From an uncultured Planctomycetota bacterium (GTDB taxonomy: Bacteria > Planctomycetota > PLA2 > JAEUHO01), in NCBI GenBank assembly GCA_963752285.1, contig CAVVXN010000005.1, positions 32,001 to 96,000 of the forward strand: a stretch of 64,000 nt of DNA, read 5' to 3'. Position 1 is the first letter of the stretch; every line of letters starts with the position of its first letter. The position numbers and the translations under genes were made by a program. The notes under the pieces were generated by a model that saw only the letters and a program-made list of their open reading frames with translations, did no database searches and was not told the origin of the DNA. This document shows, in pieces, positions 31,496-34,681 of the stretch.

Positions 31496-33151
31496 TCATC
31501 GCCCGGGGTCGGCGCCCACCAGCTCGACCTCCACCCCGGCGGGCGCCGCGTGTGCGAGGGCGTCCACGACCCAAGCGAGCCGTGCACGCGTGGGGGGATC
31601 GGGGGGGGCGAATCGCAGCGTGGCGCACGGTCGTCCCTGGTGGCGCGTGAGCACGCGGGGCCGCAGGGACAGGCGTGCGCTCGCGACCTCGCCGAGCGGG
31701 ACGCTCCGCCCGTCGCGGACCCCGACCGGGAGCGAGGTCCGCTCCAACGGGCTCCGAGCGCCCTGTCCGTACCGGACACGGACCCGACGCGCGCGGCCGT
31801 CCACACGACACGTCGCAAGGAGCACGAGCCCGTCCCCCGCGGCCTCGAGGAGGCGGCGGACGTCCCGTTCCTCGAGCCCCAGGGCACGAAGTCGATCCGC
31901 GTCGAACCGCCACGACGGGCTCGGCGCCACGTCGAGTCCCGCGCGCGTAAACCGCGCCGTGGGGACCGCTTCGCGAACCTGCGCCTCGGCGCGCGCCATC
32001 TGCGCCTCGAGCACGGAGCGGTCGTCGCCGGTGAACCGGATCGCGGGCGCGGTCCGGAGGTCGTCGGCCGCGGACACGGCCGCGGACGGCACGGCGGCCG
32101 TCATCGCACGGACGAGATCCCCCGTCGCCGTGGGGTCCGCGGGCCCAAGGAGCACGCGGGCGAAGGTGCCGGCCAGGGGCTCCTCGTCCTTCCCGTCCTC
32201 GACGATCACGATCGGCTGCGCGCGGTCCGAAGCCGTCTCCGCGACGGCGCGCCGTGCCGCCTCCAGGGCTCGTTCCTTCGACGTGCCGGCAGGGAACGCG
32301 AGGCGGACCTCGTCCCACCGGTCGAGTAGCGCGAGGTCCACACCCGGCACCGGGGACGACCTCCGGAACGCGTCGAGCGCGCGGGCGACGCCCACCCGCG
32401 CGACGCGGACGGCCTCCGACACGTGCACCGCGAACAGCACCGCGGGGCCGTTCGCGAGGCGGACCCAGCCGTCGTCGGTCGCGAGCGCTGTCCGGACCTC
32501 CGCGACGTCTCGCACGCGCACGTCGGGCGCCACGACGACGTCGCCGAGGGCCTCCGGCGACGCGAGCGGCTCCGTGGGGCCGGTCGGGACCAAGGAGAGC
32601 GCGTCGAGGACGCGCGCCCACGCGAGACCGCGCGCCGCGAGCCGCTCCGGCGAGACCACCACCTCGACCTCCGGCGTCGGGGCGCCGATCGGATCGACGC
32701 GTCGGACGCCGGCAACGCGCGCGAGCGCCTCGCCGACCGCCTCGGTCGGCGCGACGAGGTCGGCAATCGTCCCGTCGCGCCGGAGGACGACGTAGAGCGT
32801 CGCGGTCGGCCCCGCGTCGAGGAAGACCTCGACCTGGACGTTCGGGGGCAGGGCCGCGGCCGCCACCCGGTCGCGCACGGCGGCGAGGAGATCGGACGGG
32901 CTCGCGGGGAAGGAGAGACGGAGGAACGCCGCGCCGTCGCGCGTGACGTCGTCGAGCGAGGCGAGCCCCGGGAGGTCCTTCAGCGCGGACTCGAGGGGGA
33001 GCACGCCCTGCATCTCGAGCGCCTCCGCCGTCGCCCCGGGCGCGCGGAGGCGGAGGACCACGCTCTCGGCCGCCGGTCCCGCTCGCGCCCGGCCGGCGGC
33101 GAGCGCGACGCCGAGGAGACTCGTTCCGAGGAGCAAGGCCTTCCGCCGCAT
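31496..33151 (-). CDS. AcrB/RND-like protein consisting only of the periplasmic porter and docking domains
   Basis: Signal peptide; PGATAEALE..VLPLESAL..LPGL, VAGVRRV...PERLAARGL, VRVRDVAEV, PAGTS, GDDRSVL, DGRSVPLGEVA, TRHQGRP; no TM helices. Confidence 0.75.
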   Translation of the reverse strand: MRRKALLLGTSLLGVALAAGRARAGPAAESVVLRLRAPGATAEALEMQGVLPLESALKDLPGLASLDDVTRDGAAFLRLSFPASPSDLLAAVRDRVAAAALPPNVQVEVFLDAGPTATLYVVLRRDGTIADLVAPTEAVGEALARVAGVRRVDPIGAPTPEVEVVVSPERLAARGLAWARVLDALSLVPTGPTEPLASPEALGDVVVAPDVRVRDVAEVRTALATDDGWVRLANGPAVLFAVHVSEAVRVARVGVARALDAFRRSSPVPGVDLALLDRWDEVRLAFPAGTSKERALEAARRAVAETASDRAQPIVIVEDGKDEEPLAGTFARVLLGPADPTATGDLVRAMTAAVPSAAVSAADDLRTAPAIRFTGDDRSVLEAQMARAEAQVREAVPTARFTRAGLDVAPSPSWRFDADRLRALGLEERDVRRLLEAAGDGLVLLATCRVDGRARRVRVRYGQGARSPLERTSLPVGVRDGRSVPLGEVASARLSLRPRVLTRHQGRPCATLRFAPPDPPTRARLAWVVDALAHAAPAGVEVELVGADPGR

Positions 33152-33203: not shown

Positions 33204-34061
33204 ATGAAGCCCGGCGGCCTCGTCGTGCCGATCCTCCTCGCGGCGACCCTCGCCTTCGCCGTGCCCGAGGGCTGGCACACTTCGAGAAAGGACGGCCTCG
33301 CGGCCGCCACCACCAGCGGGAAGCCGCTCTTCCTCGTGACGCTCTGGCCCCCGAACGTGTGAGGGTCCTGCGACGCCTGGCGGAGCCGGGTGGAGACGGA
33401 CGAAGGGGTGGGGAAGGCCCTCTCGCGGTTCGAGTGCGTGGAGGAGGTCTACGACGGGCTTGGAGGGAACGTGATCGCCTGGACGAAGGCGCACGGAGGC
33501 ACGAGCGACGATCCCTCGGCGCAGGTCTTCGTGCTGGGCCGGGACGGCGCCTTCGTCGCGCGGGCGTCCGACGCGACCGCGCACGACCCGAAGGCCCTCG
33601 CGACCTGGCTCGGCGAGCAGTCGAAGGCGTACGAGCGGGCCCATCCGAAGACCGCGCTCCCCCTCGTTCGCGCCGAGGTCGCGATCGAGGGCCAGGGCGA
33701 GGACGAGAAGGCGGTGTGCGCGGCCCTCGACGACGCGAAGCGGCGGGGCGCGCCGGCCCTCCTCTACTTCGGGCGCGACGCGGCGCCCGCGGGCGACAGG
33801 AAGCTCGGGAAGGAGGTCGAGGCGTCGCAGAAGCTCGAGCGGGGCGCGCTCGACGCGAAGTCGGCGGCCCAGGCCGCGAAGGGCTGGGTGCTCCTGCGCT
33901 TCGACCTCGCGGACCCGACGCACGCGCGGCTCGCGAAGTCGTTCGGGGTCGGGGCGGCGCCGGACGTGGTGCTGGTGGTGCCGGGCGGGGACGCGCCGAT
34001 CGACCTCGGCGTCCCGAGCGCGGCGACGCTGTGCTACCGGTTGAAGAAGCACGCGCCCTGA
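33204..34061 (+). CDS. Candidate selenoprotein: exported tandem thioredoxin-fold protein with UxxC (U53-G-S-C56)
   Basis: ORFs 32943..33362 and 33390..34061 share a frame, separated only by TGA 33360-33362: ...W-x4-DGLAAATTSGKPLFLVTLWPPNV-U-GSC-DAW...; hairpin follows. Confidence 0.85.
33365..33401 (+). promoter_or_regulatory. Bacterial SECIS-like stem-loop
   Basis: Lower stem GTCC/GGAC; upper stem CGCCTGGC(33374-33381)/GCCGGGTG(33385-33392); apical loop GGA 19 nt after TGA. Confidence 0.7.
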
Positions 34062-34192
34062 ACGGCGCGGCGTCGGCCGAGACGGTCGGGCGTGCTCGGC
34101 TCCGGCGGGACCGCACGGCCGCCGGATCCCGGATTCGGGACGTCCCCTCGTGGCGTGGGAGAACAAAGCCCCGGACAGGAGACCCCGTCCCC

Positions 34193-34681
34193 ATGCACGA
34201 GCACGAGCCGCTCCCGGACTCCGTACGCGAGACCATCGACCTCTGGGTCTCGGACTTCGCCGAGCGTCCGGCCGCGGTGGAGCCCCTCGCGCGCGTGGGG
34301 ACGCACGGGCTCGAGGTCCTGGCCAGCTTCCTCGGGGCCGCGTGCCACGGCGGCGTGGAGCCGCCCGACATCGAGGGGGGAGAGGTCGCCCACGCGCTCC
34401 TCGACCACGTCGCGACCCTGGCGCTGCCGCCCGCGTCGCGCGACGCGGTGCCCGATCTCGTCGCGGCCTTCCTCGCCGACCTGGAGGAGGTCGGCCGGCT
34501 CTCGGGCGGGCGCGCGCTCGCGGCCCAGGTGCGCGCGACGGCGCCGGCCTACCGCGAACGTGCGTCCGGGCGTACCCACGTCGAGAAGCGGGTCGCGCCC
34601 AAGGTCGGCCGGAACGACCCCTGTCCCTGCGGGTCCGGGAAGAAGTACAAGCGCTGCTGCATGAACGCGCTGGACCGCTGA
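34193..34681 (+). CDS. SEC-C motif (Zn-binding) domain protein
   Basis: C-terminal KVGRNDPCPCGSGKKYKRCC; AGGAG SD. Confidence 0.88.
   Translation: MHEHEPLPDSVRETIDLWVSDFAERPAAVEPLARVGTHGLEVLASFLGAACHGGVEPPDIEGGEVAHALLDHVATLALPPASRDAVPDLVAAFLADLEEVGRLSGGRALAAQVRATAPAYRERASGRTHVEKRVAPKVGRNDPCPCGSGKKYKRCCMNALDR

Follow-up and report, generated by a model that had tools for sequence, protein, structure and literature searches.

Thioredoxin folds that carry a UxxC motif are the commonest class of selenoproteins. The first residue of the motif acts as the nucleophile and the second one resolves, and selenocysteine (Sec) reaches the UGA codon as Sec-tRNA delivered by SelB on an in-frame SECIS element. 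Among solved structures, the closest folds to both domains of the protein described here are those of the DsbD C-terminal (gamma) domain, DsbH and B. fragilis 3f9u (Z 12-14), which are Cys-based, whereas our analysis of a window of 64,000 nucleotides from an uncultured Planctomycetota bacterium (source genome G000, 4.64 Mb, 89% complete) points to a free exported tandem pair of thioredoxin domains, of which the first carries Sec and the second lacks a CxxC. The order of a catalytic and then a non-catalytic thioredoxin domain is also that of the a-b type proteins PDI, ERp57 and QSOX, the top Foldseek matches, but these are eukaryotic and Cys-based and the analogy extends only to how such proteins work, since the whole-chain TM-score of ~0.3 (rmsd >9, identity 9-16%) indicates that the two domains are not arranged as in PDI or QSOX.

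Several catalogued selenoprotein families resemble this protein in part. The Trx7/PDZ (seleno)protein NF041199 also has a Trx7-type N-terminal domain with Sec and was the most frequent weak NCBIfam match (22 of 68 alignment members, E<=0.01), but it gave 12.5 bits against a cut-off of 300 with only positions 2-58 of 390 matched, its catalogued motif is CxxU (Table 1 of PMC13188914) and not the UxxC seen here, and the second domain here is a thioredoxin, with no PDZ match. The 'Thiol:disulfide interchange protein' selenoproteins (PF13098) share the UxxC in a thioredoxin fold, the in-frame SECIS and the Cys homologues; our protein appears to be set apart by its tandem architecture and degenerate second domain, and PF13098 had no match at E<=0.1 in the query or 14 homologues. 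The UGSC-containing protein NF041046 has in common the literal U-G-S-C of this gene, and no match to it appeared in 16 proteins (E<=0.1) or in the 68 members (E<=0.01). VPGUxxT (NF041382, NF041383) and TsoB (NF045694) have Trx7/DsbD-like Sec domains and matched weakly in 4 of the 68 members each, but the best score among 16 proteins was 25 bits against cut-offs of 350, 275 and 805, and their motif is absent here.

With 16 proteins scored, every NCBIfam model (release June 2026) stayed below its cut-off, and matches among the 68 members of the alignment were weak (best E 4.4e-6). Table 1 of PMC13188914 (119 families) holds no tandem-thioredoxin UxxC entry and no PF13899 entry. We found no literature on this tandem-thioredoxin family, which Haft and Tolstoy 2025 (mSystems), Deng et al. 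2026 or BSepDB (PMC13326102) could list. The family is therefore taken to be apparently uncatalogued, which we consider likely, and the suggestion of the first-pass annotation that it may be undescribed holds for the catalogues compared (NCBIfam and Table 1). It appears to be a new family of a well-known kind, the UxxC thioredoxin-fold selenoproteins: the protein resembles them in how it would work but belongs to none of the modelled families compared.

Reading frame and the codon at position 53

From its ATG, the frame contains a single internal stop, the TGA of residue 53, directly followed by GGG TCC TGC to give U-G-S-C, and it ends at a second TGA at 34059-34061 (Table 1). Table-11 ORF calling breaks the gene into a short upstream piece and a 223-aa ORF that starts at the internal GTG, and the same break is visible in protein databases: 16 of 17 matches in one search start 3' of the Sec position, all 12 short N-terminal matches checked in a second search (87 matches) stop one residue before it, and the homologues, where a name is given, are called 'hypothetical protein'. 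The first-pass annotation, which had anticipated that pipelines would split the gene, also placed the frame, the TGA, the stem and the loop at coordinates that proved correct throughout. A scan of the gene for promoters and terminators gave no sigma-70 promoter match and one terminator-like hairpin on the minus strand (34052-34069), at chance level.

Table 1. Coordinates of the gene, its predicted elements and other thioredoxin-fold TGA genes of the source genome. Positions are those of the window unless a contig is named.
Feature	Position	Strand	Basis or remark
Whole gene, 285 aa with TGA 33360 read as Sec	33204..34061	+	Cys orthologues align full-length
Predicted Sec-pathway signal peptide, residues 1-19, cleavage predicted after A-F-A	33204..33260	+	Hydrophobicity
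Domain 1, catalytic thioredoxin fold of DsbD-gamma/Trx7 type, ~residues 21-147	33264..33644	+	VIA-align; PF13899 26.9 bits (cut-off 27)
In-frame TGA, almost certainly Sec53, position 1 of U-x-x-C	33360..33362	+	Codon comparison across genomes and metagenome loci
Lower GTCC/GGAC stem, outer bounds	33365..33401	+	Predicted in this gene; not conserved
Cys56, putative resolving cysteine	33369..33371	+	Cys in 52/52 sequences
bSECIS upper stem-loop, apical GGA loop 33382-33384, on Trp59-Arg60 codons	33374..33392	+	Fold prediction
Internal GTG, table-11 start of 223-aa 'hypothetical' fragment	33390..33392	+	P0002 begins there
Family signature Y83-D-G-L-x-G-x-x-I-x-W93-T-x-x-x-G98...P104	33450..33515	+	Conservation
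Domain 2, degenerate thioredoxin fold without CxxC, ~residues 150-285, keeps Pro (P253)	33651..34058	+	VIA-align, profile alignment
Thioredoxin-fold TGA gene L071, motif UVPC	G000:C5:252206	-	Hairpin
Thioredoxin-fold TGA gene L073, motif UGPC	G000:C5:1821586	+	Hairpin
Thioredoxin-fold TGA gene L072, motif TPGU	G000:C4:141550	-	Hairpin
Thioredoxin-fold TGA gene L074, motif UPWC	G000:C5:1051408	-	Hairpin

Matches at E<=0.001 were obtained in 31 of 401 genomes of the phylum, 25 of them at E<1e-20. In these 25, the codon at position 53 is TGA in 22 (including G000 and G292) and Cys only in three (G187, G204, G220), and G089 carries a paralogue with TGT besides its Sec copy. The counts do not include six weak matches (G391, G001, G321, G214, G276, G295). 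Two of these, G001 and G321, are other thioredoxin types; G391 (same genus, 80% complete; L047) matched only in the C-terminal part, at profile positions 152-283, and its Sec domain was not found with family queries. A metagenome scan with two patterns, one of them written with Cys at the site, returned 19 loci, 17 with TGA and 2 with TGC, several of them near-copies. A profile search of the class matched 17 of 40 genomes, four of which had not come up before and have one TGA somewhere inside the match, and a further homologue, P0014, is labelled Planctomycetota in NCBI. Single-protein pattern scans of the genome contigs yielded no confirmed relative, exact 8-residue patterns being too strict at 45-50% identity, and no close paralogue was found in G000, where a profile search gave two weak matches. 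At one locus (L070, G292:C9) the TGA is at the Sec site and the gene is frameshifted downstream, through assembly error or decay. Across genomes and metagenome loci, position 53 varies between TGA and TGC/TGT only, with both flanks conserved. The in-frame UGA persists among orthologues and stands opposite Cys in homologues, as expected of a bacterial selenoprotein gene.

The source genome has selA, selB, selC and selD, all above cut-offs. Its tRNA-Sec was called by ARAGORN and scored 70 bits with RF01852 (cut-off 47), and selD has one in-frame TGA, at its U-x-x-K site. In this genome selA and selD lie adjacent on the same strand (G000:C1:734626-736999(+), L009 and L018), selD being itself a selenoprotein. 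All 22 TGA genomes carry selA or selB, as does each of the 24 strong-match genomes other than G000 (selB was not found in G365, nor selA in G148), and the three Cys-only genomes have selA, selB and tRNA-Sec. Since selA occurs in 290 of the 401 genomes and related genomes are not independent cases, the co-occurrence of gene and Sec machinery supports the reading only modestly. The first-pass annotation had read the UGA as Sec and pointed to selA, selB, selD and tRNA-Sec as the genes to look for; all of them were found, homologues carry TGA or Cys at position 53, and the frame continues beyond it.

It could still be argued that translation really stops at the TGA, that the codon is a sequencing error or that it was reassigned to Trp or Gly, leaving a pseudogene or two genes, given that the assembly holds further isolated in-frame TGAs within coding-like stretches (68 candidates, most of them outside a redox context) and that the hairpin of this gene reaches only a z of about -2. 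Such an origin would hardly leave the codon as TGA in 21 genomes besides G000 and in 17 metagenome loci, swapped only with TGC/TGT between conserved flanks, or a selected SECIS loop codon. Elsewhere in G000 TGA is a stop: this very gene terminates with one, and tRNA-Sec is the sole tRNA found with a TCA anticodon. An error at the codon, for which a look at the reads had been proposed, is opposed by a public contig (X6 record 17, possibly from the source sample) that equals the window over 33324-33556 with 0 differences and spans the TGA, and by a metagenome relative (L078, 96% identity) with the same TGA. Among other contigs, X1 record 4 was excluded (no listed difference at the codon, 8 of its 14 differences being unlisted), and X2 and X4 cover other positions than the codon. 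A stop, error or reassignment is accordingly very improbable and, as far as conservation can tell, refuted in practice, and TGA 33360 almost certainly encodes selenocysteine.

The predicted SECIS hairpin

The 8-bp stem with a GGA loop that had been noticed 19 nt after the TGA was recovered by fold prediction, with 33374-33381 paired to 33385-33392 and two G-U pairs. In a simplified bSECIS test, our own version with constraints from the Fig. 2 legend of PMC13188914 and not bSECISearch, the gene passes with loop GGA, spacing 19, 8 pairs and -13.6 kcal/mol (30-nt window). Taken alone, the hairpin of this gene is weak evidence. It exceeds chance only modestly (z -2.09), since 7 of 200 dinucleotide shuffles fold equally well, and against synonymous recoding the z is -1.59, with 46% of recodings passing the bSECIS model too.

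The family as a whole gives a clearer signal. From 44 loci, 5 were removed as region duplicates, which left 34 Sec and 5 Cys genes; 31 of the 34 Sec genes pass the simplified model against 11.7 expected (synonymous recoding, family codon usage), and 3 of the 5 Cys genes pass against 2.5 expected. The three Sec genes that remain fail it, and some of those that pass do so via a hairpin shifted to another register. In 23 of 32 Sec genes the Arg of the loop is encoded by CGT, compared with 42 of 510 Arg codons elsewhere in these genes, a bias whose p-value of 1.7e-16 is overstated because the sequences are related; CGT places G-U in the loop, and the CGG of G000 places G-G there. These codon statistics indicate that the hairpin is under selection across the family. 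Covariation lends the stem only weak support: no convincing consensus emerged when RNAalifold was run on 20 SECIS regions, the count of two-sided changes was equalled by 28 of 500 shuffles, and the named stem has 71.9% of cells paired against 24-47% in slid controls, but 84 of 500 shuffles reach that value. The inner stem pairs are nearly constant among members. As for the lower GTCC/GGAC stem, also part of the initial description, pairing of 33365-33368 with 33398-33401 is predicted in this gene, but it was not conserved among orthologues, and since it lies on codons that vary among them it is probably outside the conserved element.

Fold, predicted export and proposed function

The predicted signal peptide ends in A-F-A and follows the A-x-A rule for signal-peptide cleavage. 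A hydrophobic N-terminal segment was seen by hydrophobicity scan in all 36 sequences that include the N-terminus, and a later 19-residue window above 1.6 occurs in two of the 36, one each, and nowhere in this protein. The protein is very likely exported, and the scan agrees with the signal peptide and periplasmic location predicted at first reading.

An AlphaFold2 model of the mature chain built with 68 sequences (pLDDT 96.6, pTM 0.88) shows a strand at 23-28 and then a helix at 35-43, with U at 34 (mature numbering), so that (C/U)xxC is at the helix start. Fold, (C/U)xxC and Pro loop are those of a thioredoxin-fold oxidoreductase, in which P104 would by alignment be the cis-Pro. The best VIA-align match of domain 1 is 3f9u (Z 14.4, rmsd 2.5, 122 aligned) and that of domain 2 is the DsbD C-terminal domain 1vrs (Z 13.0, rmsd 2.3, 112 aligned). 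A profile match to DsbD-gamma/DsbH/Trx-type domains had an E of 4e-5, and for Pfam Thioredoxin_7 (PF13899) the query scored 26.9 bits against a cut-off of 27, with 9 of 14 homologues passing. The two domains align to each other (probability 84%, E 7.7e-6), and the domain 2 position that matches Cys56 is Ala in 28, Cys in 18 and Ser in 15 of 65 sequences, so that domain 2 looks like a duplicate with its active site lost. Structure model and profile alignment both bear out the second thioredoxin-like domain without CxxC that had been described from the letters.

Conservation is concentrated in domain 1, where all 33 full-length rows share T46, W48, U/C53, C56, W59, Y83, G88, W93, G98 and P104 without exception. 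P104, which aligns with the thioredoxin cis-Pro position, is found in 68 of 68 sequences and is preceded by Asp in 58 and His in 9. UGSC is the motif in only 6 of 35 Sec members, the others having UAPC, UGPC, USPC, UTPC, UNPC and so on. G067 and G104 have this Sec domain fused instead to a C-terminal domain that is helical (L044:1465-2457(+) and L045:1006-2031(-)) and has a three-Cys cluster, C-x6-D-x3-C-x2-C, L044 weakly matching the C-terminal part of NF041382. These fusion proteins are possibly a sister selenoprotein family, and they suggest that the C-terminal part is an exchangeable accessory.

We estimate a probability of about 0.6 that this exported soluble selenoprotein is a periplasmic thiol-disulfide reductase or isomerase, a function that would agree, through fold and motif, with the Sec redox enzyme first proposed. 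After export and signal-peptide cleavage, Sec53 would attack a disulfide or an oxidised thiol of an envelope protein, Cys56 would resolve the intermediate to leave an Se-S bond, and the DsbD of G000 would reduce this bond again, while the YDGLxG..W..G..DP segment by the active site and the non-catalytic domain 2 may select and hold substrates, as PDI b-type domains do. A search of 5 genomes found the DsbD transmembrane domain in all 5, and in G000 the DsbD frame has a pair of Cys at its N-terminal end, WCGNC at its C-terminal end and both membrane Cys motifs. The selenoprotein is probably fed by DsbD; as DsbD is common (10 of 14 control genomes), its presence is no proof of partnership.

No conserved redox partner, substrate or operon gene was found beside the selenoprotein gene with Pfam on 63 of 111 neighbouring genes. 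Upstream, a bifunctional-nuclease-domain gene occurs in 8 loci of family f1, and a small SoxA/TsdA-type cytochrome c gene is present in 6 loci of family f55, its domain confirmed in 4 of 4 scanned. In the window itself, the divergent upstream gene (31499-33151(-), ~551 aa) has a partial AcrB/AcrD/AcrF match of 81.8 bits over about half the profile length, and the downstream gene (34193-34681(+)) has a C-terminal SEC-C motif, which is SecA-type and metal-binding, not selenocysteine.

The cytochrome gene, which lies ~0.6-1.1 kb upstream on the same strand in the six f55 loci, raises the possibility of a reductase dedicated to one pathway, acting for example on apocytochrome c CxxCH, as CcmG/ResA do, or on a small molecule. 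The best structural match, 3f9u, bears the annotation of a putative exported protein domain related to cytochrome c biogenesis, and strong conservation of the YDGL..W..DP segment suggests that the substrate is a specific one. A gene on the opposite strand, however, separates the cytochrome gene from the selenoprotein gene, the f1 neighbour is a different one and G000 has neither, and this protein lacks the membrane anchor that CcmG and ResA carry, so we regard a dedicated role as unlikely. A DsbA-like oxidase, or a scavenger of peroxide or sulfenic acid that protects envelope cysteines, seems somewhat less likely again. The predicted exported location would suit it, and so would the Asp or His before the conserved Pro, unlike the Ile that precedes the cis-Pro of cytoplasmic thioredoxin. 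Reducing thioredoxins typically have x-Pro ahead of the second Cys, and oxidases x-His; of 52 sequences here, 21 have Pro at this place, 19 have Ser and none has His, which argues against a DsbA-type oxidase. Table 1 of PMC13188914 does list UxxC selenoproteins of DsbA-like and DsbG-like type, but the structural matches of this protein are of DsbD-gamma/Trx/DsbH type, with no DsbA title among the 50 VIA matches listed, and G000 already has two exported Prx-like Sec candidates. A periplasmic reductase or isomerase fed by DsbD is thus the function we favour.

Selenocysteine, cysteine and the wider selenoproteome

Changes from Sec to Cys are described as rare in bacteria and mainly known in FdhA and SelD (PMC13188914). 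In our 52-row tree, which includes 12 Cys rows from protein sets only, without DNA, 10 Sec/Cys changes are needed and 6 are forced by well-supported branches. Removal of 19 rows, these 12 and 7 near-copies, leaves 33 DNA-verified rows, for which 4 changes are needed and 3 forced, and a single Cys clade is rejected (AU p=0.006). On these trees, Cys forms arose several times. Rooting on three divergent Sec members makes Sec ancestral and the Cys forms reversions, which they probably are; the root is uncertain because the divergent database proteins P0044 and P0046 have Cys, and the distant homologue P0076 apparently Ser, at the Sec position. The Cys genes of G220 and G187 retain the CGT loop codon. 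Taken further, the family may be Sec-ancestral with at least three reversions to Cys in Sec-competent genomes, two of them keeping the SECIS loop codon, contrary to the published view, and its protein a PDI-like periplasmic selenium disulfide isomerase, with one catalytic and one substrate-binding domain, that forms part of a DsbD-fed envelope selenoproteome of the phylum. As a combined proposal this is tentative, and we hold it to be less likely than not.

A coding-score survey of G000 gave 68 in-frame TGA candidates and is incomplete, because it missed selD. Four of the survey genes are clear thioredoxin-fold Sec genes, each with a signal-like N-terminus; two resemble TlpA/ResA and two Prx (Table 1), and all four proteins are below NCBIfam cut-offs. 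In another genome, G321, the minus strand of locus L049 encodes an exported Trx7-type protein whose match contains two in-frame TGAs (FR*VP*LDC) and which may be a double-Sec form of UxxU type. Another G000 gene (L075, G000:C5:358694(-)) has an in-frame TGA in GLGFG-U-VGAG and a strong hairpin (-29 kcal/mol), with no family at cut-off; its TGA may encode Sec, terminate translation in the ordinary way or be erroneous.

The family described here is an addition to the bacterial selenoproteome that is mis-annotated wherever names are given, and since the active site is missing from the annotated fragment, searches by function cannot find it. Heavy use of Sec in the phylum is indicated by selA in 290 of 401 genomes and by at least five exported thioredoxin-fold Sec candidates in G000; the main text of the 2026 review (PMC13188914) does not contain the term 'planctomycet'. 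With Sec as the majority state and natural Sec/Cys pairs in Sec-competent genomes, the benefit of selenium to a periplasmic thioredoxin becomes directly testable in this family.
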